Part shown: one piece after another, positions 1,141-14,858 of the stretch
How positions within the stretch are numbered: the first letter of the stretch is position 1
Layout of the letters: each line of letters starts with the position of its first letter
Source of the DNA: a virus
Length of the DNA: 64,000 nucleotides
Virus record (IMG/VR): IMGVR_UViG_3300026097_000008
Span: 64,001 to 128,000 of that record
Strand: one strand, 5' to 3'
Program-made: the position numbers and the translations under genes
The notes under the pieces: generated by a model
The model's database searches: none
The model's input: only the letters and a program-made list of their open reading frames with translations
What the model was told of the DNA's origin: nothing

Positions 1141-2712
1141 TTACCGTAATCTCAAGTTTATATTTTTTAGTTGACTTGATCCTTGTGTTTGCACAGGTTG
1201 ATCACCATACTTTGAAAATAAAAATTTATTTGGTGCGCCTAATAAGCTTGTTCCGAAAACAGCGTAATCATTATCTAATCCGGTTGTGAACATAGTAGAC
1301 TTTGCATCACTTGTGACACGGTTTTTAATCTGTGTAGGTGTAAAATTTGGATTGACTTGCAAATGTTGTGCTATTACGCCTGCTGCTTGCGGAGCTGCCA
1401 TACTTGTTCCATTAATCATTGCAATTTTAAAATTTGTATCTTGTGGATAATCAATAGTAGAATAAATGCTACTGGTGCTGCATGTGCTTATAATATTAGT
1501 ACCCGGTGCAAATAAGTCTAGTCTAGGACCTCTACTAGTAGAATTTGCTGTTTTATCTTTATACTCACTTCCGTCTAGCTGAGTATCGTCGTCACTGTTG
1601 CCAACAATAAAAGCATCTGAACTGTATGGGCTACTGCCTCTATGATAAAAGTATGTTTGAGCACCGTAAACAACAGTATTATCATAATCGTCGCCGCCAG
1701 GATTATCACCTTTAAATAAGTCATTACCTGCCGCTATACAAACATGTATTCCTGCAGCAATCATATCATCTACTTCTGCATCAACACTTGCAACTCTTGC
1801 AGGTATAAATCTCGAAACACCATCTTGGGGGATTACTAGTCCCGTTGCCTGCCATAATGCAATATCATTTGCATAAGTCACGCCATAAGTCCAATTTGAT
1901 CCTCTATAGGTGCCGCCTGTAGGATCATCTGATCTAACACTTGCAAACCCCCAGCTCATATTTACAACTGTAGGTCTACCATTTGTTTTATTCAAATGCC
2001 AGAGCCTTATTGCATCAAATGCATCCGCAGTCGGTATGCCAGATCCACTATCGCCTGTGCCTTCAAGTCCTGCTAATTTTTGACCATATATATGTGCCCC
2101 TTTAGCCCACCCATATGTAAGTCCTGCTGCAATGCCTGCACAATGCGTCCCGTGGCCATCTGTATCTCTGTCATGATTAATACTTTGGCCGCCTATTAGT
2201 CCACTTGCGCTATACCAATCTATAAGTCTAACTCGTGTATTTCCGTTATAATCATTAAAATCAGGATGATCTACCTGTAAACCACTATCCTGAACTACTA
2301 TATCAACCCCTGTGCCGTCGAGAGCATATGGATATACGCCGCTAGCAACAAGACTATTTCGGTAGATATTAGTTTCTTCTATACAACGTCGTAGACCCCA
2401 ATTTACTTGCTGAGAATTAAGCACAGTAGGCTTGTTAAAATTTGCGTTTTGAAAGGCTCTCTTGCCTATTACAATGTCTGTTCTTTGGTCTACAGGAATT
2501 TCTACACTTAACACTCTGGGATCGTTTTGTAAATCTACAGCTTCTTGATCAGTTAGCATCCAATGTGTCATACGCTTCGAGCCAATTCTAGGATTAGCTA
2601 TATCAACAGTTCGATTAGGGATAGGACCACTACCTGATGAGGCTGACAATTCTGCATCAAACTCTTCTAAGTCTATTCCTTTGTGAACTACTACAACGTA
2701 CTCTTTTTCCAT
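1141..2712 (-). CDS. Subtilisin-like serine protease (peptidase S8), probably virion-associated
   Basis: Catalytic motifs VVQDSG (Asp), HGTHCAG (His), AAGN (oxyanion Asn) and GTSMAAP (Ser). The start is probably MEKEY at 2712, a TAATG overlap with the upstream gene, rather than 2730. Confidence 0.9.
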   Translation of the reverse strand: MEKEYVVVVHKGIDLEEFDAELSASSGSGPIPNRTVDIANPRIGSKRMTHWMLTDQEAVDLQNDPRVLSVEIPVDQRTDIVIGKRAFQNANFNKPTVLNSQQVNWGLRRCIEETNIYRNSLVASGVYPYALDGTGVDIVVQDSGLQVDHPDFNDYNGNTRVRLIDWYSASGLIGGQSINHDRDTDGHGTHCAGIAAGLTYGWAKGAHIYGQKLAGLEGTGDSGSGIPTADAFDAIRLWHLNKTNGRPTVVNMSWGFASVRSDDPTGGTYRGSNWTYGVTYANDIALWQATGLVIPQDGVSRFIPARVASVDAEVDDMIAAGIHVCIAAGNDLFKGDNPGGDDYDNTVVYGAQTYFYHRGSSPYSSDAFIVGNSDDDTQLDGSEYKDKTANSTSRGPRLDLFAPGTNIISTCSTSSIYSTIDYPQDTNFKIAMINGTSMAAPQAAGVIAQHLQVNPNFTPTQIKNRVTSDAKSTMFTTGLDNDYAVFGTSLLGAPNKFLFSKYGDQPVQTQGSSQLKNINLRLR

Positions 2713-3953
2713 TAGACTAAGCTCGCCCATGCTCCGTTTTCGTAAACTTGTGCTTTGTTTAAAGTGCTATCATAAACCATATCGCCGTTTATCGCTGCAA
2801 GTGCATTTTTTTCTGTAGTTGTAAAGCTAGGCAATCTCAACGGACCGTTTTGGACAATCACACCGTCTGGTGCAGAGAGTGTTAATGTGCTTGCGCTTTG
2901 TATTTCCGGTAATCCAATTCCATTTGAAACAAAATTTGTAGCGTATGCATTATTATCTACAGTAAGATCATTTTCTACTGTTAAATCACTGTTCATCGTC
3001 ACATTTGGAATTATAGATATTCCGCTACTGTCGTCAGTTGTAATTGTTGATGTATTAAATGTAAAATTTCCTACGCTTCCAGATCCGCCGCTAGCATTTG
3101 TAAAGGAAAAATTTCCTGAACCATCTGTTGTTAAAACCTGTCCTGATGTACCATCACTTATGCCTAGGTCTAACAAACTTGTAGGCACAGGGGAACTTGG
3201 TTGCACCCATTGTCCGCTGTCGTCGTCTACCACATATATGTATAATCTCCCATTTGCACTATTATACCATATATTGCCTGCCTCTGGCGAGCTAGGTGCA
3301 GAGTCACTAATGTCAGTACTAGCTCCGCCGGATCCGGATCCAGGATCAGCGGTAGTAATAGTATTTCCCATGTCTAGATGATTTTGGCACCAATAATATA
3401 GTGTAGTCGGTGTCTGGTCTGTGATTGTAATTGCAACACTACGTTGCTCTGCTCTTTCGAACCCGTCCCAGTATCCTTGCTTGGTCACTACTTTATTATC
3501 TAGTTTATATACTACTCTATCAGTGTAAACAGTACCGCCACCAAGTTCCCCGTTAACATTATCTGAACTAAAATTTAAAGGATGTTGATTATTTGTAGTA
3601 CCAACGGCATTAGGATACCATACATTAGTTGAATCATTTTGATTAAAAATGTAGGTATAACCTATAACAAAACTTAGTGCTGGATTGTTTTCATCATTTA
3701 GGATGTATTTGTTGCCGGCACCGGTATCATTAATTACAACATTATAAGTTTTGGTTGCTATACCCGATAGGCTATTATTAGTAAGAACTTCAAAACCGCC
3801 AGCTAACTTACCACTATAAAGTCTTAAACTACTTGTTTCTGAATCAAAGAATACTTCACCACTAGATCCAACATTTCTATCAAGAAAATCATTTGGTCTT
3901 GGAATTATTCTTATTCTATCTACTATAGGTGCTGATGACATCTTTATCCTCAT
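2712..3953 (-). CDS. Virion structural protein with a cupredoxin-like domain and fibre modules
   Basis: Contains HPLNFS...TLYYWCQNHLDMG, a DGTSGQVLTTDGSGNFSF fibre motif and a C-terminal LRLP...GDMVYD...W module. A late promoter lies upstream. The start may be MSSAP (3941). Confidence 0.65.
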   Translation of the reverse strand: MRIKMSSAPIVDRIRIIPRPNDFLDRNVGSSGEVFFDSETSSLRLYSGKLAGGFEVLTNNSLSGIATKTYNVVINDTGAGNKYILNDENNPALSFVIGYTYIFNQNDSTNVWYPNAVGTTNNQHPLNFSSDNVNGELGGGTVYTDRVVYKLDNKVVTKQGYWDGFERAEQRSVAITITDQTPTTLYYWCQNHLDMGNTITTADPGSGSGGASTDISDSAPSSPEAGNIWYNSANGRLYIYVVDDDSGQWVQPSSPVPTSLLDLGISDGTSGQVLTTDGSGNFSFTNASGGSGSVGNFTFNTSTITTDDSSGISIIPNVTMNSDLTVENDLTVDNNAYATNFVSNGIGLPEIQSASTLTLSAPDGVIVQNGPLRLPSFTTTEKNALAAINGDMVYDSTLNKAQVYENGAWASLV

Positions 3954-3967
3954 TTATATTGCTACTG

Positions 3968-3974
3968 TATTTAT
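3968..3974 (-). promoter_or_regulatory. T4-type late promoter (ATAAATA)
   Basis: AATAAATA on the minus strand in the intergenic gap before the 413-aa gene. A gp55 homolog is encoded in this window. Confidence 0.6.
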
Positions 3975-4008
3975 TCAATGCTATAGCATTATATTTTTGA
4001 GATAAATC

Positions 4009-4419
4009 TTAAAAGAGTAATGTTTTGTCTGATATCTCTTGAATTTTATCGTTTTTTAACACAAATTTAGTTATGTCATCTAGATGAATATGATAAGGAG
4101 TATTATCTGGAACACTAACAAATGGAACATGGTGATATGTTTGCACTGTTTCGCCTAACCAGTCCTCTTCTATAACTGGAATTTTCATAACATCTTCGTT
4201 GAATCCTTTTGTAGTTCCAATTACAAATTTTTCTTTCCCGTCATCTTCGTCTATATAAAAAATTATTACTTCGTTTTCTTTTAACAAAGCACGTATCCAG
4301 TTTCTTAATGTTTCACGATCTTTTTGGCTTTTGTAAAGGGCTGTGGCGTCGCCTTCTTTAACTTTTCTTTTCTTCACTGTATAGGTCACAAGCTCATGTG
4401 TCCGTAATTCTTCAATCAT
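4009..4419 (-). CDS. Hypothetical protein (possible small SH3/WYL-like beta-barrel)
   Basis: 136-aa ORF with GGAGG RBS; last gene of the enzyme operon. The fold guess is weak. Confidence 0.55.
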   Translation of the reverse strand: MIEELRTHELVTYTVKKRKVKEGDATALYKSQKDRETLRNWIRALLKENEVIIFYIDEDDGKEKFVIGTTKGFNEDVMKIPVIEEDWLGETVQTYHHVPFVSVPDNTPYHIHLDDITKFVLKNDKIQEISDKTLLF

Positions 4420-4421
4420 GC

Positions 4422-5156
4422 TTATCCTCCAAAATGTTTGTAATACAAATCTTGTATTATATTTCTTTTAAACGTAAAATTTGCACTTCTAAAATATTTC
4501 TTTTTGTCTAACCAAAATTTGTCTAAACTATTCATTTCTCTGCATACTATATCATAATCTTTTTCAGATAATGGAATTATATGAGCCAATGGTGTGCCTG
4601 CTTTAATCAACACGTCGCCTTTTTGAACATTGTAATATAATTGAATATTTATTTCATTACTATACCCAGGATTGAGAATACCGATAGAACTTTCAAATTC
4701 AAAATTATCTGGATATGCAATAGGCAACATTAATAATTTTACACCTCTAGGTGCAACAACGTGCCATGGTGTATTTATTTTTACAAATGTATTAAGACTC
4801 CACGGCTTAATAGGCATTTCTGTGCCGACTCCGTTAGATTGATTTTCTACAATGTTAACTTCCGGTGTCAAACTGGCGAGATCTGACGAAGGCACAGTCC
4901 ATGTAAACTCGTCTGGATTGCCGTTGGTGCTTATAATAACATCATGCCACATTGGCACAACAAATCCGTGCTTAAATAAATCGAATATACCAGGACACTG
5001 ATATATATGACTCATTGACCCTAAAGTTCTATTCTTTTTCTTTACATAGGAATCTCTAGCTATTTTTGTCCAAGCTGGCATCGCATCCTTTGCTTTTACA
5101 ATAGGATATAAATCTGGAAGTCCCGGAACAGTCGAATAAAATTCTATTTTTTTCAT
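4422..5156 (-). CDS. Conserved phage protein (DUF6065-like / dUTPase-like beta-clip fold)
   Basis: Motifs CPGIFD..GFVVP, INTPW...P.G..LL and IKAGTPLAHIIP, typical of proteins found beside phage 2OG oxygenases. ATGA overlap with the upstream gene. Confidence 0.55.
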   Translation of the reverse strand: MKKIEFYSTVPGLPDLYPIVKAKDAMPAWTKIARDSYVKKKNRTLGSMSHIYQCPGIFDLFKHGFVVPMWHDVIISTNGNPDEFTWTVPSSDLASLTPEVNIVENQSNGVGTEMPIKPWSLNTFVKINTPWHVVAPRGVKLLMLPIAYPDNFEFESSIGILNPGYSNEINIQLYYNVQKGDVLIKAGTPLAHIIPLSEKDYDIVCREMNSLDKFWLDKKKYFRSANFTFKRNIIQDLYYKHFGG

Positions 5157-5725
5157 ATTATCACATCATACGCTATATTAATTCGTTCTATATCTGAATT
5201 GTTGTATTCAACTTCGTGTGGTAGCCAAGAAGGCCATAAAACAAGATCTCTATCTTGTGGCAAATAATTGAAATCTCTAGTGTACGGCGAAGCATTACAA
5301 CAGTCCCCTAAAATATTAGCAGGATTGATTATACGTAAAGATCCTGTACCAGTACCTTGGATATAGTATACTCCTGAAAAAATTGCAGATTTGTGTGAAT
5401 GCATTGCATTCCTTGATTGGGGTTGATTGATGTTTGTCCAATAGTTTATTTTTAAATTATGTTTGCCTAAAGTTTCCATCTCTTGTGCAAAGAAATGATC
5501 TTTTTCGCTGTATAACTCAATAGCACGAAAGCATTTATCAGTAATTGCTTTGAGAAGCCAATCTACGTTTTTATACACATGTCCTGATCTCCAACAGCCG
5601 TCATTGCTCCTTGGTGCGCCTGGTTCGTGTCTGATTTCAGAAATTTGTTTTAGTAAGTCTTTAATTTCGTTGTCAGTTCCGATATTAGGTGTTGCATCTA
5701 AATGAGCTTCAAATAACGAAATCAT
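5153..5725 (-). CDS. 2OG-Fe(II) oxygenase superfamily protein (HxH type, TIGR02466-like)
   Basis: W.NIN, HSH, FSGVYY, LVLWPSWLPHEV and ERINIAYD. The start is probably MISLF at 5725 (ATGA overlap). Confidence 0.85.
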   Translation of the reverse strand: MISLFEAHLDATPNIGTDNEIKDLLKQISEIRHEPGAPRSNDGCWRSGHVYKNVDWLLKAITDKCFRAIELYSEKDHFFAQEMETLGKHNLKINYWTNINQPQSRNAMHSHKSAIFSGVYYIQGTGTGSLRIINPANILGDCCNASPYTRDFNYLPQDRDLVLWPSWLPHEVEYNNSDIERINIAYDVII

Positions 5726-7233
5726 GTGTTGTACCAATCTGTTAAGTAATCGTAATGGTTTTCGAACATACCTTCGGCAAGATCGAGGCGTTTTCTATGG
5801 CATTCTAAAAAATATTCAGCATATTGTTTTTCTTTTTCAGATAACGGTGATTCGACATCCTTATATGCACCGCCTGCATGCAATACACACCACCATTGTA
5901 CTACATTAAACATTGAATTAGGTGCAATATTAAAGAATCTTTTTGGCACTGGCAAGAATAATTCTAGTATTTCTCTTGCTCTTTCTGGTAAATTTTCTAA
6001 AGATTGCGTTCTAAAAGATTTCCAAAAATCTGTATCTTCTTTTGTTGAAAAATAATAATGAGCCCATACAAATGCTAGAATCTCGTTTGACATAAAATCA
6101 AAATTGTTGTTTATAGCATATTTTTGTTGTTCGCCCCATATATTACCACTAGTATTCAAGACTCCTGCAATGTCTGATACAACACTAGTTGTAAATGTTA
6201 TACCTGTAGCTTCTAAAGGTTCTACAAATCCTGCACTTAATCCTACTGCGCAGACATTTTTTACAGCAATTTCTTTATGATATCCGCATTTCATTTTTAA
6301 ATGTCTTGCGGGAGCAACAAACTCTCCAATTTTTTGTCTCAATTCTTGTTCAGCACTTTCTGCATCAATAAATTTAGAAGAATATACATAACCATTACCG
6401 ATACTTTTGTATGTAGGAATCGTGAACATCCAACCCGAATCCATAGCTGTAGCTTTGGTATACGGATGACATTCTTTTTGTGGATTAGTAAACTGAGTCC
6501 TAATAACAACAGCATTATCGTTGGGCAAATACTTTGTATAATCTATAAAAGGTACTTTTAGTTTTTGTTCTAACAATATACTTGCAAATCCTGTGCAGTC
6601 TATGAATAAATCAGACTGGTAAGTATTTGCATCTTCATCAATTAACGAATCTATACCTTCTTGATTTACTTTAACATCTGTAATTTTAGTATCAATATAT
6701 GTTATTTTGTCTGCTATTAAATGCTTTATAGTTTTTATAATATCGTACGCACCAAAATGCACTGCGCCAAAATCTGATGGTCCCATTCTATGATTTACAT
6801 CTAAATAACTGTCAAATTTCTGACATATATTCTTTTTTGCTAGCCTATAAGCAGGATGCCAATCTGCAAATTCACTATATGGCTTGTCTATAAAATAGTC
6901 ACTTGTGTAAAAGTTATGTGCTATGATGCCATTATCTTGATTATCATTGTCAACAAAGTAAGATTCATTATTCCATCCAATAAGCTCTACTCCGTACTTA
7001 AATGATGCATTACTATCTTTCATCCACATATGTGGGGGTATACCACATTCGCTTAAAAATTTTGTTGTGAAAGGCTGTGTCCCTTCGCCTACACCGATAG
7101 GACCTTGTTCTGAATCTTCGATTAAAACAATTTCTGTTGGTATTTTCAAGTTTTTTATAAGATATGCTGCTGTAAGCCATCCGCTTGTTCCGCCGCCAAA
7201 AATTGTAATTTTTTTAATTTTTTTTAGATACAT
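5722..7233 (-). CDS. Flavin-dependent halogenase, tryptophan halogenase (PrnA)-like
   Basis: GGGTSG FAD motif, IGVGEGT, conserved Lys in ASFKYGV, FIDCTGF, GWMFTIP (variant of WxWxIP) and GFVEPLEATG. Confidence 0.88.
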   Translation of the reverse strand: MYLKKIKKITIFGGGTSGWLTAAYLIKNLKIPTEIVLIEDSEQGPIGVGEGTQPFTTKFLSECGIPPHMWMKDSNASFKYGVELIGWNNESYFVDNDNQDNGIIAHNFYTSDYFIDKPYSEFADWHPAYRLAKKNICQKFDSYLDVNHRMGPSDFGAVHFGAYDIIKTIKHLIADKITYIDTKITDVKVNQEGIDSLIDEDANTYQSDLFIDCTGFASILLEQKLKVPFIDYTKYLPNDNAVVIRTQFTNPQKECHPYTKATAMDSGWMFTIPTYKSIGNGYVYSSKFIDAESAEQELRQKIGEFVAPARHLKMKCGYHKEIAVKNVCAVGLSAGFVEPLEATGITFTTSVVSDIAGVLNTSGNIWGEQQKYAINNNFDFMSNEILAFVWAHYYFSTKEDTDFWKSFRTQSLENLPERAREILELFLPVPKRFFNIAPNSMFNVVQWWCVLHAGGAYKDVESPLSEKEKQYAEYFLECHRKRLDLAEGMFENHYDYLTDWYNT

Positions 7234-7235
7234 AA

Positions 7236-7832
7236 TTAGTCCTTAAAATCAAAATAAATGTTAAACGCTAAAGATATTCTTGTGTCATTGCTTTTATTAG
7301 GCAATACTTTATGCAATAACCAACTAGGAAATAACAATATCATTTCATCTAAAGGTTCTACAGTAAGTAAGTTGCTGTACTTATTTGAATGATGTGGAAA
7401 GCTAGCTACAAAAGGATTAGTGCTCTTAAATTGTATATCTCCACTATTTTTCGGTGCTCTATAATAATAGCAACCACTGAACATATTTGGCTGATAACCA
7501 TGTTCATGTAGTCCAATTACCTGATCTTTTGTAAAGGTATTCAACCATGAACCTAAAATATATGTGCTAGTCTTTTTGTATGGATAAGTCAACTGGTCTA
7601 AATATTTTCCTGCATGATTAATAATTTTAGTTTCAATTATTTTCATATCGAACTCTTTTATTATATCTGTAGAATTCTCATGACTAAAAGTTGTGTTTGC
7701 CGTGTCGTTATCCGGCTGCCAATCATTCTTAAATACTGCATGAGACATTGCATGTATAAATTCTCTATCTATGCTGTCACTAGTCTCTATTTTACCCATA
7801 TATATAGGAGTACTAAAAAAATTTTCTATCAT
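7236..7832 (-). CDS. 2OG-Fe(II) oxygenase superfamily protein (HxH type)
   Basis: FSTPIY N-terminus, SWLN, HEH, FSGCYY, LLFPSWLLHKV and TRISLAFN. The start is probably MIENFF at 7832 (ATGA overlap). Confidence 0.85.
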   Translation of the reverse strand: MIENFFSTPIYMGKIETSDSIDREFIHAMSHAVFKNDWQPDNDTANTTFSHENSTDIIKEFDMKIIETKIINHAGKYLDQLTYPYKKTSTYILGSWLNTFTKDQVIGLHEHGYQPNMFSGCYYYRAPKNSGDIQFKSTNPFVASFPHHSNKYSNLLTVEPLDEMILLFPSWLLHKVLPNKSNDTRISLAFNIYFDFKD

Positions 7833-9496
7833 TTTCGTATCACAACTACATATAATCCGTTCCACCACTCGTTTTTATTTTCTTCTGAGTTGAGGAGCAT
7901 TTTTTCGTATACAGCAATTCCGTTTGAATTGTTTATACCCTGTCTAGCACCATCTACAACACCCTGCCAGTTTGCATCATCAAAAACTAGTATAGCTTCA
8001 TTTGCAAGTGCAGGCCAATAGTGTTCAACTGCTTTAGCCACACTAGTTTCATCGTGAGGACCATCATAAAAGAACATTTTGATGCTGTTTTGCGCAGGAG
8101 ACACATCAACACTAAATAAATCTTGGTTGAGTACGACTACATTAGAGTCGCCTCTGTGTTTTTCTAAATTTTTAAAAAATACATTAATATCGTTATCTTC
8201 AGCAACTTCACCGTTTTGCGATGCTATTCCTTCACTCCAATGATCTATTGCTACAGCTTGAATAGGATTATCTTTCAGTACCGCACATAGTGTTGCACCT
8301 AAATAAGTTCCAACTTCCATATAAGTATCTACACCCTGAGCGAGAGTATTTAAAAGTGTTTGTACTCTCGGTGATGTTAATCCCGGAATATCTAAATTTA
8401 TAGTAGGTATACCCGAATTAGCAATACACTCTGCTGCGTGTTTTACTAATTCGCTATGTTGTATTTTTGATTTTACTTCGTATATTTTGTCACAGTACTG
8501 GCATTCCCAACAATCAAACTTACAATTTTTAATTTTTTCTCGCCATACGTTAATTGGCTTTTCTACTAAATTTGTTTCTTGTAAATAAGGTGCAAAATTA
8601 TCGTTAAGAAGAGTTTCGTTTCTATCCCATTTACGAATTATTTCCATTGTTTCGTATAGTCTACTAATTGCTTCTCTTCCATGCATTTTAAACACATCTA
8701 TTCCAAGATCATTTAAAAATTCCTCCCAGTCCTCTTTCCACGGAGGTAAATCAGCATTTTTTAAATGCACTGCCGGGTCTTGTACGTCCCATTTAGGACA
8801 GCTGACTCTGCTAATAGGATCATTAAAATATTGCGGACTACTTCCTTCTCTAGTGTTATTAAATTCAAAGTGCTCTACCATCATTGGACAGTTGCCAAGA
8901 CATCCTTCATTTGCAAGTAAACTAATGTGTATTTCTTTGCCTAAATTTTCTTTTACCCATTCTTTAGCAGTTTTAATTCGTAGCAAAGTGTCTCTGTCTC
9001 GCATTAGATCTCTATCTAAATTTATGTAGTCGAAACCGGCTTTGGCAAGATTTACAATCTCTGCGGCGGTTCGTACTTCTCTTAAGATTGTATTTTTTAC
9101 TTTTAGTTTAGGAAATGCTTTTTGTATTTGCCCTGTAGCCATCCAGTGTGTATGAGGAACAGTAGCAGTATGTACTCCGGCATCATATAATGGTTTAAAA
9201 TGATATATAAAAGTGTCTAAGTTTTTTTGAGTAGGAGGTACTTGAATATTGTTAAAAGTTGCACTTAAAGGAATACCCGTATAATGCTGTATTTGTAAAG
9301 CTGCATCTATAGCATACTTATAGTCTTCTTCGTAAACAAAAGTATCTCCCATTGCGTCTTGGCTAAAGGGAGGTATACGGCTTGTGAAATATATATCATA
9401 AATTAGATGTTTATACTCTACAACAAATTTTATAAAATCCTGATATTGATCTGGACTAAGTTTCGGATTTAATGGAATACTAAAGATTTTTTTCAT
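7829..9496 (-). CDS. Fusion of a U32-family (peptidase U32 / Fe-S hydroxylase-like) domain and a class I SAM methyltransferase (Methyltransf_24-like)
   Basis: N-domain: LDRDLMRD, LLANEGCLGNCP...H, VFKMHGR (compare U32 LKIEGR) and Cys cluster CKFDCWECQYC. C-domain: YMEVGTYLGAT (motif I), AIDHW, FFYDGPH and LVFDD. Confidence 0.75.
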   Translation of the reverse strand: MKKIFSIPLNPKLSPDQYQDFIKFVVEYKHLIYDIYFTSRIPPFSQDAMGDTFVYEEDYKYAIDAALQIQHYTGIPLSATFNNIQVPPTQKNLDTFIYHFKPLYDAGVHTATVPHTHWMATGQIQKAFPKLKVKNTILREVRTAAEIVNLAKAGFDYINLDRDLMRDRDTLLRIKTAKEWVKENLGKEIHISLLANEGCLGNCPMMVEHFEFNNTREGSSPQYFNDPISRVSCPKWDVQDPAVHLKNADLPPWKEDWEEFLNDLGIDVFKMHGREAISRLYETMEIIRKWDRNETLLNDNFAPYLQETNLVEKPINVWREKIKNCKFDCWECQYCDKIYEVKSKIQHSELVKHAAECIANSGIPTINLDIPGLTSPRVQTLLNTLAQGVDTYMEVGTYLGATLCAVLKDNPIQAVAIDHWSEGIASQNGEVAEDNDINVFFKNLEKHRGDSNVVVLNQDLFSVDVSPAQNSIKMFFYDGPHDETSVAKAVEHYWPALANEAILVFDDANWQGVVDGARQGINNSNGIAVYEKMLLNSEENKNEWWNGLYVVVIRK

Positions 9497-9522
9497 AATT
9501 TTACTTTTCGGTAGTTTCTATT

Positions 9523-9551
9523 AGTATAACGGATTATTTTAAAAAAAGCAA
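9523..9551 (-). promoter_or_regulatory. Sigma70-type promoter for the enzyme operon
   Basis: TTGCTT (9551-9546), 17-nt spacer, TATACT (9528-9523), 26 nt upstream of the ATG at 9496. Confidence 0.65.
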
Positions 9552-9566
9552 GAGTTTTTTAAATAA

Positions 9567-10088
9567 TTACTTTTCATTTCCTGGCCATTTTATATTGAAC
9601 TCAGGTTCCCTAGGCGTTTTGTTCATAGCCGGCGATGCCGTGACTTTGTAATAGTTATGCAAAATAAGTTCACATTCTTCTTTGGTAGAACATGCTTCAA
9701 CTTTTTGAAGTAATTTTTTTAGGATCTTTTTATCGGTAAGATTTTCATTTGCATACAATCTCATTGCTGATTTTATCAACACTGTGACGTTTTCTTTATC
9801 TTTATCAGTTAGTCTATAAACATATTTTTCCCACTCTACATCGCCAGAAGCTGTCACAATGTCTTCTGCTTTACTTACTGGCTCAGTTACACTAACTACA
9901 TCTCTGTATGCATTTGTTAACACAGCAGATTTAGCAACTTCTTCAGATAATTCAATATAATTTATCCAATCAATATATGCACCGTCTGGAATATAACGCA
10001 TAGTAAAGTGCCAATAATCGCCTACTACTTTACTGCCTTTAGGTATTCTAGGATCATTATCAGCTATCGTCGGATGTATTATATACAT
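9567..10088 (-). CDS. Hypothetical protein
   Basis: 173-aa ORF overlapping the upstream gene; no recognised motif. Confidence 0.6.
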   Translation of the reverse strand: MYIIHPTIADNDPRIPKGSKVVGDYWHFTMRYIPDGAYIDWINYIELSEEVAKSAVLTNAYRDVVSVTEPVSKAEDIVTASGDVEWEKYVYRLTDKDKENVTVLIKSAMRLYANENLTDKKILKKLLQKVEACSTKEECELILHNYYKVTASPAMNKTPREPEFNIKWPGNEK

Positions 10089-10950
10089 TTAATATATTTC
10101 CTTGATCTACAGCCGATGCACTAGGAGCATTTACTGATAACTTCAATTCTGCATCGGAATCCTCTGTTGGCGGCTTTGTTAAAAATGCTGTATCTGCATT
10201 ACTATCTAACGCTAGTTTTTCGTCAATATTAGCTTGTATATTTTTTTGTATATGTTGCAGTTGCGTACCATAATTCATTGCTAGAGATAATGTTTCTGTT
10301 TGCTGGGTAGGAGACATACTAAGTATAGCATCCATATTTCCTGTGCCGACCCTTCCGTAAAACAACAAATCGGTAGCAGCTTGTTTAGCAAGTCTGTTAG
10401 TCCAATATTCTGCTTCGTAATAATCCTCTGCGTCAGTATCCATAATATCCATATATGTTCGGCCAGAACCATCTGGCAATAATGCTTCGTCTGAATTTAA
10501 AAATTCTTGTATTAAATCTAAAATTTGTTGTCTTTCTAGATACCAATTAAGCAACCGTCTTCTTGTTAATACTTGAGTACGGTTAAGCTCTTTTGCTTCT
10601 AGTAAATGCTCTCTACGATCAAAATCGTCAATTGCATTTTGTGCTTGATGCTCGTGTCTTTCAATCTGAATTTGCCATTTTTCAATATCATATTCTAATT
10701 TTCCAATAGCTTCTTCCCTTGATTTTAATTCAAGCAACCATTGACGCAGTTTGCTAAAGGGAGTGATTTGAGTTTCCCCTACAAACCAACGCATTTTATA
10801 TTTTGGATTTGCCCACTCTTTATTTTGCGAATAATCCAAAAGTGCTACTTCTTTTTCCGATAGTTGCGAAACATCGCTTAGAAGTTCGCTTTTATGTACT
10901 TCTGTTTCTTTAGCAAATTGTGACAGTCTGTCAGGCATATTAGATTCCAT
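10060..10950 (-). CDS. Coiled-coil protein, possibly a fibre-assembly partner
   Basis: Long heptad-rich helical region (RQWLLELKSREEAI...). The RBS AAGGAG favours a start at MESNM (10950). Late promoter ATAAATA at 10978-10984. Confidence 0.65.
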   Translation of the reverse strand: MESNMPDRLSQFAKETEVHKSELLSDVSQLSEKEVALLDYSQNKEWANPKYKMRWFVGETQITPFSKLRQWLLELKSREEAIGKLEYDIEKWQIQIERHEHQAQNAIDDFDRREHLLEAKELNRTQVLTRRRLLNWYLERQQILDLIQEFLNSDEALLPDGSGRTYMDIMDTDAEDYYEAEYWTNRLAKQAATDLLFYGRVGTGNMDAILSMSPTQQTETLSLAMNYGTQLQHIQKNIQANIDEKLALDSNADTAFLTKPPTEDSDAELKLSVNAPSASAVDQGNILNVYNTSDDS

Positions 10951-11026
10951 GTTGTCTCCTTTAAAAAACATACATTATATTTATTAATTGAAAATTTATG
11001 ATTATATTATATTGGCAGAAAGAGTA

Positions 11027-12079
11027 TCAATCTCTCCAAGAACATACACCAGAACTAGCTCCTGGTTTCCCTTTTGGCTCCATTGAACTACCGCCTCTAA
11101 AGCCGCTTTCAGATACGTAATTCCATCTGTGTGAAATATTATTTTGCTGTCCGTTATACATACCAATCATATATTGATGATCTTGGCCCATGGTATAGTT
11201 TTCTTCGCCTGAGTCCCCTACAGGTTTAGATACAGTGCCAGAAGTTGTATTTGTTGTCCAATTAGTTCGACGATAATTGTTGCCGCCTCTGTATGTTCCT
11301 TCATTGCCAGCCCAAGCGTATTGTCCTTTGGAATTTACAGCTTTTTGTTGGTGATGATTGGCTGGATCAGTTCCGCCTCTGTTCGAAGCTGTTCTAGTAG
11401 AAAAGTTAAATGTAATACCATTATTTCCTTCGTACATTATGCCATACGTTTCGGTGCTCATACCCCATGTAGTACCACTGTACATAGTTGCACCGATAGT
11501 ACCTGTAAGTGTTTTGGTTGTCAAATTATATTCTTCAACAAGTGTATTTTCACCATTTAGCCAGGTTTCATAATGTTCTCTAAAAACGCCTCCATAATTG
11601 TGTCTCGATAGTGCCAAATTGCGATCAATGTCAGTAGCTTGTGTTTCAGTTCTCATGTTAAATGCAATTGTATAATTTGAACTAACTGAATGTCCACCTC
11701 CAGCACCAAAAACATATGCGTAATCTTTAGAACATGCTCCCCACTGATAGTTAAATGCAGCTTCGATTGCTCCGTCACCTAGGTTATAAGTGGTATCAGT
11801 GGCGGTGATTGTTCTATTGAGATTGTTCCAAGCTACACTGCTTTGGTAGCCGCCTTGCATATAACCATTATTTATAATTGTTCTAGTAAGAAAAGGTATG
11901 GTCATTTCAGACCATCCTGCACTAGTAGTGTACGTGCCGTCTTGATAATATTCGACTACACTATTATCTGTATTGTAGCGTATTCTGCCAGCATCATTAC
12001 CTGGACGCTGGGCTGTTGTACCTTTGGGTAATCTTAAATAGTCAGTGCCGTTAATAGTAGTGTTTTTTAATGTTGCCAT
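11027..12079 (-). CDS. Virion appendage protein, paralog A (adapter module plus Gly/aromatic beta-repeat, propeller-like)
   Basis: N-terminal LRLPKGTTAQRP...RYNTD...EYY module, then ~45-aa beta-rich repeats. Colinear paralog of 12089..13138. Confidence 0.65.
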   Translation of the reverse strand: MATLKNTTINGTDYLRLPKGTTAQRPGNDAGRIRYNTDNSVVEYYQDGTYTTSAGWSEMTIPFLTRTIINNGYMQGGYQSSVAWNNLNRTITATDTTYNLGDGAIEAAFNYQWGACSKDYAYVFGAGGGHSVSSNYTIAFNMRTETQATDIDRNLALSRHNYGGVFREHYETWLNGENTLVEEYNLTTKTLTGTIGATMYSGTTWGMSTETYGIMYEGNNGITFNFSTRTASNRGGTDPANHHQQKAVNSKGQYAWAGNEGTYRGGNNYRRTNWTTNTTSGTVSKPVGDSGEENYTMGQDHQYMIGMYNGQQNNISHRWNYVSESGFRGGSSMEPKGKPGASSGVCSWRD

Positions 12080-12088
12080 ATTATTATC

Positions 12089-13138
12089 CTAATCTCTCCA
12101 AGCACATACACCAGAACTTGAACCTGCTTTGCCTTTTGGCTCCATTGTAGAGCTACCTTGGAATCCGCTTTCTGTAGCATAATTCCAACGCCAAGATCTG
12201 TTGTTTTGTTGCCCATTATATTGTCCAAGCATATACTGGTGATCTTGTCCCATGGTAAAGTTTTCCTCGCCACAGTTGCCGTCTGGTTTTGCTACTGTAC
12301 CTGAGTCAGTTGTATTTGTTGACCAATTGGTTCTGCGGAAGTTTGATCCGCCACTATAACTTCCTTCGTTGCCTGCCCATGCATACGTACCTTTTGAGTT
12401 TACAGACTTTTGCTGATCGTGATTGGAAGGTGTAGTTCCGCCACGACTGGATTTTGTTTCAGTAGCAAATACAAATGTTTCTGCTGTATTTGCAGCGTAA
12501 AATAGCGCATAGTCCTCGTGGCTCATGCCCCATGTTGAACCTGACCTATAATTTTGTCCTATATTTCCGCTGCTTGTTTTAGTCACTAAATTGTATTTGT
12601 TAATATTACTATCACTATCTCCCGACATCCAAGTTTCGTAGTGTTCTCTAAAAATGCCACCGAATCTCCATCTGTTACTTGGCAGACTTCTATCTATGTC
12701 TGTCATTTGCTGTTCAGTACGCATGTTGTAAGCAATAGTATAGTTAGAACTAACCGCATGGCCGCCGCCTGCACCAAACACATATGAATAGTCTTTAGAA
12801 CATGCTCCCCATTGATAGTTGAATGCTGACTCAATTGCAGAGTCGCCTAAGTTTGTAGTTGTGTCAGTAGCAGCAATAGTTTTATTCAAATTATTCCACG
12901 CTGCACTACTTTTATACCCGCCTTGCATGAATGCTGTTGTTATAATTGTTCGAAAAGGAAATACGAGAGAACTTAATTCCCAAGCAACACCATTCCAATA
13001 CTCTAATTTACCACTGTCACTGTTGACCCTCATGCCTGCTATATTATCGGCATTTTCTGCTGGACGCTCGGCATCATTACCTACCGGCAATCTTAAAAAT
13101 CCTGTATCGTCTATTTCTGTATTTTTTAAAGTTGCCAT
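12089..13138 (-). CDS. Virion appendage protein, paralog B
   Basis: Same architecture as paralog A, with long identical peptide blocks (AFNYQWGACSKDY, TMGQDHQYM, MEPKGK). Confidence 0.65.
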   Translation of the reverse strand: MATLKNTEIDDTGFLRLPVGNDAERPAENADNIAGMRVNSDSGKLEYWNGVAWELSSLVFPFRTIITTAFMQGGYKSSAAWNNLNKTIAATDTTTNLGDSAIESAFNYQWGACSKDYSYVFGAGGGHAVSSNYTIAYNMRTEQQMTDIDRSLPSNRWRFGGIFREHYETWMSGDSDSNINKYNLVTKTSSGNIGQNYRSGSTWGMSHEDYALFYAANTAETFVFATETKSSRGGTTPSNHDQQKSVNSKGTYAWAGNEGSYSGGSNFRRTNWSTNTTDSGTVAKPDGNCGEENFTMGQDHQYMLGQYNGQQNNRSWRWNYATESGFQGSSTMEPKGKAGSSSGVCAWRD

Positions 13139-13971
13139 TAGAACCCTCCTCTTGCTAAAAGGGCTGATGATAGTCCCCTAATTTCATTTTCATTAAGAAC
13201 TCTGTCCCACGCAGCAAGGAACTGCCATTTCCAATCGCTTGGTTCACTTGTATTACTAGTGTGTGCTCCGACTCGTAAATTTGTTGGACCGTTAGATCCG
13301 CCTGTTGACTGCGCTCTCATAGTACCGTTCTTCCAATATTGCCATTCGTCTACACTTAAACCGCCTTCAAAATTAGTTCTACCTGTTCCTGTGTGTACAC
13401 CCCATTGATTATTACCTGCGCCTCCACCGCTTGAACTACTTTGAATTACCCAACCTTCTGCAAAGTATCTCACATCGCCATCGCTCCAGTGGCCTAACAA
13501 CCAGTTGTTTCCGCCTGGACCTGTAGTAGTAATTCTTCCTCTAGTGCCGCCGTTGTATCCACATAGTGTCATAACAGTGTATGGCTCACTGCTCATGTCT
13601 ACAGCAAAATCAATTCTGCCTGCACTTTGTCCACCAGTAAGGTATTTTGAACCTGTTCCTGAAGTTTGTTCTGTTACAGTTCCTGAAATTGTCACAGTTC
13701 TGTTGTTGCCGCTAATGTCTGTGAGTGTACTGCCGTCCCAGCTATCTGGATTGCCTACATCACACAACAACTGTAATCCTCTCATAGGTATACCGTCTTT
13801 GTTAGTTTCGGCATTTATCCAAAAACCCATCCAATAAAATTCAACATAACCCAAATCAGTATTAAATCTCATATCGCCATTTACTGGACTGGATGGTCTT
13901 TGAGCTGTAGTGCCTCTTGGCAGATATACAGATCCTGTATCATTAATTGTAGTGTCCAGTAGCGTAGCCAT
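13138..13971 (-). CDS. Virion protein with adapter module and LamG/ConA-like lectin C-domain
   Basis: LPRGTTAQRP...MRFNTD module; D.GNP.SW....L.DISGN.R and terminal WDRVL.E.EI motifs typical of phage LamG-like domains. Confidence 0.65.
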   Translation of the reverse strand: MATLLDTTINDTGSVYLPRGTTAQRPSSPVNGDMRFNTDLGYVEFYWMGFWINAETNKDGIPMRGLQLLCDVGNPDSWDGSTLTDISGNNRTVTISGTVTEQTSGTGSKYLTGGQSAGRIDFAVDMSSEPYTVMTLCGYNGGTRGRITTTGPGGNNWLLGHWSDGDVRYFAEGWVIQSSSSGGGAGNNQWGVHTGTGRTNFEGGLSVDEWQYWKNGTMRAQSTGGSNGPTNLRVGAHTSNTSEPSDWKWQFLAAWDRVLNENEIRGLSSALLARGGF

Positions 13972-14858
13972 TAATAACCTCTGCTTTTAAGTCTATTTAC
14001 TTCGGATGATAATTCTTTCACTGCTTCGATTAGATAAGCACTTAGTTTTGTATAGTTTATTCCTTTTGGATTTCCGTCACTGTCTTTGGATACAAGATTA
14101 GGAAGGATTTCGTTTACCGTTTCAGCAATTAATCCTGCTTCATTCTTTGTTGAGCCGTCTTTTCTATCGTAAGTGACTCCGTCAAGTTTTGTTATAATGT
14201 CTAGTGCATCGATGATAGGATTTACATTTTCTTTTAGTGTGATACTTGAATCCTCTACAATTGTAGTTGCAGTCATAGTAGTAAATTGTCCGGTATTTCT
14301 TGTTGTGCTACCAATTGGAGTATTGTTAATTGATCCGCCTGTAATAGGAACTCCAGAAAGACCTCCTGATAAAGTTAGCGATACAGCACTTAATACATTA
14401 CAGGATAAAGTACCAGTGCTAGGTTGATATGTTAATTTCGAACTGCTAACATTCAGTCCTGCAATAGATCCGCTAGTTGAATCTGTGAATGACGGGTAAT
14501 AAGTACTCGAATCAGCATTTTGATCGCTTACTGTGATTCCGCTTGTTATAAAAGATAAGTTTCCATTTCCATCAGTCGACAATACAGAGCCAGCGCCTCC
14601 ATCAGCAGCAGGAAAGGTTAAAGTATAATCTGCACTTACAGTTCCAGGTGCTTGCAGTGTTACAAAATTACTGGCGTTGTCACTTAAAAGCAACCCGTTA
14701 TTATTTGCAATTTGTAAGTCATTAGAGGAAACTGTCACACCCGAACCGCTAGGATTAAAATTAATGTTTTCGTTAGGCTGTGACTGGAAAGTATTATCAA
14801 CGGACGCCAAAGTTCCTAATATTGGTCCACCTACGATTCCTGTTGTAATTTTACGCAT
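13971..14858 (-). CDS. Tail fibre protein with C-terminal intramolecular chaperone (peptidase S74)
   Basis: S-S..LKENV..I..AL....L.GV.Y, GLIAE.V..ILP.LV and INY..L...LIEAVKEL form the S74 autocleaving chaperone signature. Confidence 0.8.
   Translation of the reverse strand: MRKITTGIVGGPILGTLASVDNTFQSQPNENINFNPSGSGVTVSSNDLQIANNNGLLLSDNASNFVTLQAPGTVSADYTLTFPAADGGAGSVLSTDGNGNLSFITSGITVSDQNADSSTYYPSFTDSTSGSIAGLNVSSSKLTYQPSTGTLSCNVLSAVSLTLSGGLSGVPITGGSINNTPIGSTTRNTGQFTTMTATTIVEDSSITLKENVNPIIDALDIITKLDGVTYDRKDGSTKNEAGLIAETVNEILPNLVSKDSDGNPKGINYTKLSAYLIEAVKELSSEVNRLKSRGY

Follow-up and report, generated by a model that had tools for sequence, protein, structure and literature searches.

What does a tightly packed block of genes for putative tailoring enzymes do within the tail-fibre module of a marine T4-like phage? 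The question is raised by positions 4,009 to 9,551 of the window, a stretch of 64,000 nucleotides that covers positions 64,001 to 128,000 of the 154,976-bp IMG/VR virus record IMGVR_UViG_3300026097_000008 (CheckV completeness estimate 44%). The six genes, g1 to g6 in reading order, encode a fusion of a Cys-rich TIM barrel with a methyltransferase (g1), two 2-oxoglutarate (2OG)-Fe(II) oxygenases (g2 and g4), a flavin-dependent halogenase (g3), a protein predicted to adopt the dUTPase/dCTP-deaminase fold (g5) and an orphan (g6). An initial annotation took them for a self-contained six-gene operon. Judged by gene content across relatives, the region is instead a mosaic phage-specific cassette, in which two recurrent modules are joined in the clade of the window. 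Module A would comprise g1 and its steady upstream partner, u303, fixed behind short-fibre paralogs; module B would comprise the halogenase g3, g5, one or two TIGR02466-type oxygenases (g2, g4) and g6. As to function, we tentatively favour a modular oxidative, methylating and halogenating cassette that would most likely act on fibre proteins.

The six genes are encoded on one strand, and their junctions, read directly, are from g1 to g6 an ATGA overlap, a 2-nt gap, two further ATGA overlaps and a second 2-nt gap, just as the initial annotation had them; the ATG starts of g2 and g4 are backed by homologs that align from residue 1 (Table 1). A single strand, coupled junctions and one conserved promoter are what a single operon should display; co-inheritance is found for sub-pairs only.

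Table 1. Coordinates of the cassette, its surroundings in the window and selected features of related loci.
Feature	Record	Coordinates	Strand	Description
g1	window	9496-7829	minus	555 aa; barrel and SAM methyltransferase fusion
g1, N-terminal domain	window	8462..9496	minus	aa 1-345; Cys-rich U32-like TIM barrel (predicted fold)
g1, C-terminal domain	window	7829..8461	minus	aa 346-555; class I SAM-dependent methyltransferase (Pfam Methyltransf_24)
g2	window	7832-7236	minus	198 aa; 2OG-Fe(II) oxygenase, PF13759 / TIGR02466
g3	window	7233-5722	minus	503 aa; flavin-dependent halogenase, Trp_halogenase family
g4	window	5725-5153	minus	190 aa; second 2OG-Fe(II) oxygenase, PF13759 / TIGR02466
g5	window	5156-4422	minus	244 aa; predicted dUTPase/dCTP-deaminase fold, DUF6065-like, phrog_7084
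g6	window	4419-4009	minus	136 aa; orphan
Candidate sigma70-type promoter	window	9523..9551	minus	TTGCTT-17-TATACT, in the 70-nt spacer upstream of g1
Palindrome	window	3968-3990	minus	AATGCTATAGCATT, perfect, 14 nt; between the g6 stop and the ATAAATA of the next gene
u173	window	9567..10088	minus	small protein between u303 and g1
u303	window	10060..10971	minus	303 aa; phrog_1409, T4-GC 353
Three short-fibre paralogs	window	11027..13971	minus	350, 349 and 277 aa; phrog_1417; common N-terminal anchor motif of ~50 aa
Peptidase_S74 protein	window	13971-14858	minus	295 aa; C-terminal Peptidase_S74 chaperone domain, 2.6e-11
Downstream fibre-like gene	window	2712..3953	minus	PHROG baseplate-wedge and tail-fibre matches
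Peptidase_S8 (subtilase) gene	window	1141-2730	minus	529 aa; downstream of the fibre-like gene
u303 homolog and barrel	RP31 (L100, AP017925.1, 277 kb)	5371-8056		u303 homolog ORF137, barrel ORF136 and DUF401/CitMHS transporter-like ORF135 in a row
Barrel-only homolog	L129	3699-7813		between SLT transglycosylase and PTPS/QueD-like gene; PNKP and GNAT acetyltransferase upstream
Second halogenase	L026	13117-14379
Second halogenase	L029	13877-15082
Second halogenase	L032	6997-8370
Second halogenase	L028	8677-9693
Second g5 paralog	L022	12954-13562		shorter and diverged
Second g5 paralog	L023	12526-13161		shorter and diverged

The mosaic character becomes apparent when all window proteins are mapped onto 91 IMG/VR loci (82 of them distinct) that were gathered via the halogenase and via g1. 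Upstream of g1 the arrangement is nearly constant: u303 is located within 1.5 kb in 64 of 70 loci, and a short-fibre paralog precedes the gene in 58 of 60, so that the linkage to the neighbouring Trp/Tyr/Asn-rich appendage paralogs, which the initial annotation had put up for checking, holds for the fusion. Downstream of g1, counted in those 56 loci that extend at least 4.5 kb to that side, the halogenase and g4 are found in 24 loci each, g5 in 28, g6 in 15 and g2 in 10; none of the five is present in 23 loci, where the fusion stands alone, and all six genes in the order of the window are present in 3. These counts overstate the frequency of the halogenase, which served to find 11 of the loci. 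Some loci keep the halogenase without one or both 2OG genes; g4 is mostly located directly upstream of g5, and this pair also occurs in loci that lack the halogenase; g6 is restricted to halogenase-bearing loci (15 of 24, as opposed to 0 of 32). Because the presence of the five downstream genes varies from locus to locus, and so few loci have the complete set, the block is, on this comparison of gene content, not the self-contained unit that had been proposed, yet its parts are not independent either.

The dependence between the parts is seen at larger distances. The isolate cyanomyoviruses Syn19, P-RSM1, S-CAM4 and P-HM2 carry a fusion of ~43-48% identity after the same fibre-side genes, followed by unrelated genes. 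In the cyanomyovirus clusters T4-GC 351-354 (Syn19_043-046, PHM2_098-101), a fibre paralog, the u303 homolog and the fusion, all annotated as hypothetical, succeed one another as in the window, but g1 overlaps the u303 homolog, has no promoter of its own and is not followed by a halogenase module; T4-GC 353 (u303) and T4-GC 354 (g1) have an identical distribution, over 5 of 16 cyanophage genomes (PMC3037559 supplement; Sullivan et al. 2010). Module A without module B is carried by P-HM2, P-SSM4, Syn19, Syn33 and S-ShM2. In the Ralstonia jumbo phage RP31, the gene directly after a u303 homolog is a g1 homolog that consists of the barrel only, with no methyltransferase nearby. (RP31 infects a beta-proteobacterium, and a putative dCTP deaminase is encoded four genes beyond its transporter-like ORF135.) Five further barrel-only loci form a distant group with 26-32% identity to g1: a halogenase follows immediately downstream in two of them (L127, L128), three (L127, L128 and L130) are located among Gly_rich_2 fibre-like genes or next to a tail assembly chaperone, and the barrel of L131 lies two genes upstream of a gene of the Asp/Asn beta-hydroxylase family, that is, of protein hydroxylases. 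A barrel directly followed by a halogenase is consequently seen in two lineages, the window clade and that of L127 and L128. Homologs of g5 are present in 16 isolate records and stand directly downstream of a halogenase gene in at least 12, including Syn9, Syn10, S-RIM44, S-CREM1 and Sf phages. According to the initial annotation, independent shuffling would speak against a joint pathway; the five downstream genes do vary among relatives, and three pairs recur in distant lineages, namely barrel with halogenase, halogenase with g5 and oxygenase with g5.

Transcription of the block may be initiated in the spacer ahead of g1. The sigma70-like element located there matches the consensus at 8 of 12 positions, which is weak, and such matches occur at chance level in this AT-rich region (62 found, 60.7 +/- 6.9 expected). 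Its position is nevertheless kept in 10 of 11 relatives in aligned spacers, although the surrounding intergenic sequence has diverged; the spacer of one relative reads TTGACA-17-TATAAT (L012) and that of another TTGACA-17-TATACT (L021), both with a TG extension. Because of this conservation of position, the element is taken as a real host-type promoter, and the claim that the block has its own promoter survives even though the consensus match alone is not above chance. The second part of that claim, late-type motifs on the flanking genes, is likewise supported: the T4-type motif ATAAATA is found 13-37 nt upstream of six genes, among them the downstream fibre gene (start 3953), u303 (start 10971, at 13 nt) and four others, and is not found upstream of g1. 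The exact TATAAATA is not enriched within the window (5 found, 9.4 expected). No terminator is seen between u303/u173 and g1, which makes late read-through into the cassette likely; the palindrome beyond g6 is ruled out as a classical terminator, since it has no T-run. The only experimental data found on timing come from P-HM2, where the g1 ortholog, PHM2_101, falls into the Late (D) class together with PHM2_099 and PHM2_100 (PMC5082946 supplement). Since no spacer separates the P-HM2 gene from the u303 homolog, which it overlaps, expression in the window clade may differ; that the cassette is expressed before the structural proteins, as originally proposed, is unproven.

The fusion g1 combines two domains. 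The N-terminal domain was modelled with AF2 from 36 homologs (pLDDT 79) as a barrel of eight beta/alpha units, for which the U32 peptidase Mk0906 (5d88) is the best VIA-align match among 48,161 chains (Z 14.6, rmsd 3.6, 219 of 247 residues), at a small margin over the generic TIM barrels that come next (Z 12.9); Foldseek places Mk0906 at rank 3. At the sequence level, the N-terminal 345 residues are without a match to any Pfam family at E<=10. The Pfam U32 family (PF01136) does not match g1 residues 1-370 at that threshold, nor does it match ten distant members of the barrel family, for which no Pfam family was found; comparison with solved structures, with the single sequence or a profile, yields nothing meaningful, and hhalign finds no match between the barrel and 18 genuine U32 proteins at default settings. 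With the permissive setting -mact 0.05, hhalign aligns 273 columns (P 0.014, probability 3%) and pairs LDRDLM with LARELS, NEGC..GNC with the U32 signature HGAmC....GrC and KMHGRE with KIEGRM.

Canonical U32 enzymes bind a 4Fe-4S cluster through four Cys residues in the pattern CX6CX15CX3/4C (bioRxiv 10.1101/587956). The barrel has invariant Cys residues at C199, C203, C233 and C325, and C329, C332 and C335 are invariant in 29 sequences and conserved to >=90% in 36. C199-X3-C203 aligns to the first two Cys of the U32 motif with a three-residue deletion, the third and fourth positions are without Cys, and C233 and a separate cluster, C325-X3-C329-X2-C332-X2-C335, are additional to the U32 set; the U32 C-terminal domain is not present in g1. 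A radical-SAM reading (SAM, S-adenosylmethionine) of CX3CX2C was set aside: the motif follows the barrel instead of lying in the beta-1 loop, and no radical-SAM profile matches. The modelled fold and the permissive profile alignment speak for the U32 label of the initial annotation and Pfam does not; with a fold match but no default profile match, and two of four Fe-S cysteines, U32 seems reasonable as a description of the fold and the likely ancestry, as shared with the U32 Fe-S hydroxylases TrhP, RlhA and UbiU/UbiV, and not as an established membership. The barrel family comprises 556 clusters at 50% identity and >2,000 sequences at 90%. It appears to be largely confined to phages, as cellular homologs amount to three short contigs of metagenome-assembled genomes among ~185,000 species genomes in a pattern-limited search, which may miss remote relatives.

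The C-terminal domain of g1 matches Methyltransf_24 (PF13578) at 1e-11 and 46-48 bits (cut-off 26.3). SAM motif I (E394-x-G396-x3-G400-x-T402) and D418 are invariant, as are D478, H481, D506, D507 and N509. Four of these, D478, D506, D507 and N509, are placed where we would expect the cation-binding Asp/Asp/Asn triad of COMT/CCoAOMT, to which they may correspond; an alignment to a solved O-methyltransferase was not obtained. Homologs of g1 are named 'predicted O-methyltransferase YrrM' by the Joint Genome Institute (JGI). A complex prediction for g1 and u303 is uninformative either way (score 0.01).

In module B, the assignment of g3 is the firmest (PF04820 Trp_halogenase at 2e-90), and its sequence matches in the PDB include PyrH, RebH, PrnA and VirX1 (6qgm, 2e-51, residues 5-417). 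In an alignment with PyrH and further halogenases of known structure, its catalytic Lys and Glu fall in register; GxGxxG (G13-G18), K79 and both Glu of FxEPLE (E338, E341) are invariant in 32 clade members. In place of WxWxIP the window has GWMFTIP (WxFxIP in 23 of 32 members), and in place of FxxPxxSxG it has FVEPLEATG (Ala for Ser in 30 of 32). Because variants of WxWxIP are known in active halogenases (PMC8407142), the alteration of this motif does not exclude activity. As far as sequence can tell, cofactor-binding and catalytic residues are intact in both the methyltransferase and the halogenase. VirX1, the halogenase of Syn10 (PDB 6QGM), belongs to the same Pfam family and has the GxGxxG, the catalytic Lys and the Glu, at ~30% identity to g3 and without its two motif changes. 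In Syn10, as in Syn9, a g5 homolog is located directly downstream of tandem halogenase genes; the Syn9/Syn10 locus has no U32-like/methyltransferase fusion, whereas g3 sits behind one. VirX1 forms trimers, and so do dUTPases. The two oxygenases are assigned with PF13759 at 3e-18 and 66 bits for g2 and at 5e-17 and 62.5 bits for g4 (cut-off 27), and with TIGR02466 at 73 and 65 bits, respectively (cut-off 62.5); no other PF13759 gene is found in the 155-kb record. The original labels of methyltransferase, 2OG oxygenase and halogenase can consequently be retained on the basis of Pfam and NCBIfam. In several relatives, a second, more divergent halogenase (20-31% identity) is encoded a few kb downstream of the first, along with extra 2OG oxygenase genes.

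The AF2 model of g5 (pLDDT 89) predicts the jelly-roll beta-barrel of the dUTPase/dCTP deaminase superfamily, to which all of the top 22 VIA-align matches belong (Z 9.5 to 4.5) before the list drops to unrelated folds; the Foldseek E-value is 5e-4. Segments resembling dUTPase motifs 1, 3 and 4 are shared with the trimeric dUTPases and dCTP deaminases. In contrast to these enzymes, g5 has ~100 extra residues, with a helical C-terminus and no Gly-rich motif 5 arm, and the catalytic Asp of motif 3 is not invariant (D in most members, N in the window and in L009, E in L081); because of these two deviations, the modelled protein is read as a binding module rather than a hydrolase. The earlier label 'DUF6065-like' has language-model neighbours in its favour, since 16 of the 30 nearest atlas clusters fall into the PF19541 (DUF6065) set, the best of which scores 0.97 and has DUF6065 on 23% of its members; Pfam is against it, with no match to DUF6065 or dUTPase at E<=10, and the predicted fold is dUTPase-like. 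Two relatives (L022, L023) have a second g5 paralog adjoining the first copy. For g6, Pfam, PHROG and NCBIfam give no match and atlas scores stay below 0.85, and none of these resources detects a relative outside the window clade.

The surroundings are those of a fibre module, as had been assumed: fibre-like PHROG matches and a Peptidase_S74 domain flank the cassette, and a 2070-aa fibre is encoded as well. The Peptidase_S74 intramolecular chaperone is a self-cleaving module of endosialidase-type fibres and spikes. Over their first ~50 residues the three short-fibre paralogs are almost the same (MATL.NT.I..T..L.LP.G..A.RP...), beyond which they diverge, and two of the 350-aa class end in GVC(S/A)WRD; by their sequences, they look like proteins with a common anchor and exchangeable tips. 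The downstream fibre-like gene, which comes after the cassette in relatives too, has ATAAATA 21 nt and TATAAAT 5 nt upstream of its start. The S8 protease next to it is kept at the same position in L008, L009, L011 and L021 at 53-55% identity and may be a fibre-processing protease. Between u303 and g1, u173 is variable (25 loci, mostly of the window clade) and has no family match. For the phage as a whole, megablast finds no DNA-level similarity of the window to isolate phages. A cyanobacterial host is possible; psbA is absent from the record as far as this incomplete sequence extends. Some relatives that carry g1 (L035, L064) are found on contigs of 307-332 kb, and the window phage may be a jumbo phage. 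The sequencing runs holding the window sequence are DNA runs from marine and saltern samples and one labelled soil, which may be the source; no RNA run is among those listed.

These observations could be combined in the following manner. The block is translationally coupled and is probably transcribed both from the conserved host-type promoter and by read-through from the late promoter of u303. In the infected cell, g1, a Cys-rich U32-like TIM-barrel metalloenzyme (its use of metal being putative) fused to a catechol-O-methyltransferase-like SAM domain, would act together with the oxygenases and the halogenase to hydroxylate, O-methylate and halogenate one electron-rich aromatic group, with g5 and g6 serving as non-catalytic binding or specificity subunits. 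The likeliest target, we infer, would be Trp/Tyr side chains of the neighbouring short-fibre/appendage proteins, whose modification may tune adsorption. A fibre target is preferred because fibre-like genes accompany the barrel in three divergent lineages, its P-HM2 ortholog is expressed late together with them, and VirX1 is described as having an active site that is large, accessible and open to bulky substrates (PMC8407142).

Several points weigh against a fibre target and keep the preference tentative. No modified protein is observed, close relatives do without five of the six genes, two canonical motifs are altered in the halogenase, and the fold predicted for g5 is a nucleotide-binding one. 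That genes lie in a structural module says little about whether their target is structural, as hyperplastic regions of phages gather genes with no relation to one another. Around the u303-barrel pair of RP31 no fibre paralogs are detectable, and the gene that comes after the pair is transporter-like. The barrel of L129 adjoins a PTPS/QueD-like gene, with PNKP close by, a setting of nucleic-acid repair or modification that differs from the fibre setting seen elsewhere. Finally, the substrates that U32 relatives of established function hydroxylate are RNA pyrimidines or ubiquinone and not proteins (PMC6599085; PMC5727448; bioRxiv 10.1101/587956).

The last points lead to the alternative that survives best, tailoring of pyrimidines in nucleic acids or nucleotides. 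Here, g1 would be a fused TrhP/RlhA-TrmR pair that hydroxylates uracil or cytosine at C5 and then O-methylates the product, g5 would bind a (deoxy)pyrimidine nucleotide, and halogenase and oxygenases would add further C5 chemistry; the targets might be tRNA wobble bases, with a possible benefit for the decoding of AT-rich phage genes, phage DNA or its precursors. All characterised U32 enzymes that act on nucleic acids yield 5-hydroxypyrimidines, ho5U and ho5C (PMC6599085; PMC5727448). In B. subtilis, trmR, which encodes a catechol-O-methyltransferase-like enzyme, lies in one operon with trhP1 and trhP2, and for trhO/yceA, fusions of the hydroxylase with trmR are known (PMC6599085; PMC5727448), an arrangement mirrored by the putative activities of g1. 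The YrrM-like JGI name of g1 homologs is a further point in favour. The dUTPase/dCTP-deaminase fold of g5 with its motif-1, -3 and -4-like segments, the annotation of the S-CREM1 homolog of g5 as triphosphate nucleotidohydrolase, the L129 neighbourhood and a precedent for nucleotide chlorination, the 2OG halogenase AdeV (PMC8407142), also point to this chemistry. On the other side, the barrel is without the U32 C-terminal domain and the canonical Cys motif, g5 lacks a conserved catalytic Asp and the motif-5 arm, and the genes are sporadic in close relatives and, within the window clade, never part of a module for replication or nucleotide metabolism. Expression of the P-HM2 ortholog is late, whereas DNA-modification genes are usually early or middle, and we know of no flavin halogenase that acts on a pyrimidine. 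On balance a pyrimidine substrate is unlikely, but the fold of g5 and the U32/TrmR precedents make it a more serious candidate than the initial annotation allowed. Its most specific version, in which the cassette makes 5-hydroxy-, 5-methoxy- and perhaps 5-halo-uracil or -cytosine in tRNA, phage DNA or precursors, with the fusion as a viral TrhP-TrmR analogue, g5 presenting the nucleotide and the halogenase halogenating it, is a long shot; if true, a virus would for the first time be seen to halogenate or methoxylate nucleic acid enzymatically and in a programmed way.

Modification of a small molecule, the next alternative, is also unlikely and ranks slightly lower. A host aromatic compound (indole, tryptophan, a phenol or a quinone) would be hydroxylated, methoxylated or halogenated to give a toxin, a signal or a redox agent in infection, and the cassette would resemble a set of auxiliary metabolic genes. 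Small molecules are indeed the substrates of most flavin halogenases and catechol-type O-methyltransferases characterised so far. Many free heterocycles are halogenated by VirX1 in vitro (PMC8407142), a quinone ring is the substrate that UbiU and UbiV hydroxylate (bioRxiv 10.1101/587956), the RP31 barrel gene is followed by the DUF401/CitMHS transporter-like gene, and reviews class cyanophage prnA as a metabolic gene of unknown substrate (PMC2984593; PMC10452541). However, no scaffold-building enzymes (non-ribosomal peptide synthetase, polyketide synthase or prenyltransferase) are encoded nearby, few cellular homologs of the barrel are detected in the pattern-limited search, and the near-universal anchoring behind the fibre paralogs and u303, repeated in distant lineages, would be left unexplained.

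That the genes have no joint function, a hyperplastic insertion site having gathered independent accessory genes whose tight packing reflects general phage genome compaction, is improbable: the content downstream of g1 is indeed highly variable, the order of g5 and g6 is not fixed, loci may lack one or the other oxygenase, isolate halogenases occur in several different genome regions, and the fusion of Syn19 and P-RSM1 is followed by unrelated genes such as denV, but pairs recur at deep divergence (barrel-halogenase at 26-32% identity, halogenase-g5 at ~30%, u303-barrel in the Ralstonia phage), g6 is exclusive to halogenase-bearing loci and the block has one conserved promoter.

Knowledge of PrnA-like halogenases in cyanophages goes back to 2005; the structure of VirX1 has been determined, and the enzyme has found use as a biocatalyst. 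The enzymes of the cassette belong to known superfamilies. That cyanophages carry prnA and 2OG oxygenase genes has been on record for a long time, with no substrate assigned (PMC2984593; PMC3037559; PMC10452541), and reviews up to 2023 give the cyanophage halogenases no natural substrate or role (PMC2984593; PMC10452541). We found no published description of the barrel family, of its constant pairing with u303 or of the pairing of halogenase and g5 at the Syn10 halogenases. The loci described here provide viral halogenases with conserved, testable partners, namely g5, in Syn10 as well, a U32-like barrel that appears largely confined to phages, and u303 next to short-fibre genes, and thereby make the natural role of these halogenases directly testable. 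If the target is a fibre protein, the cassette would halogenate and hydroxylate a virion protein by means of enzymes, and adsorption would be affected; if it is a pyrimidine, the product would be a new nucleic-acid modification. With either target, the barrel-u303 pair represents an undescribed and abundant enzyme family of marine phages.

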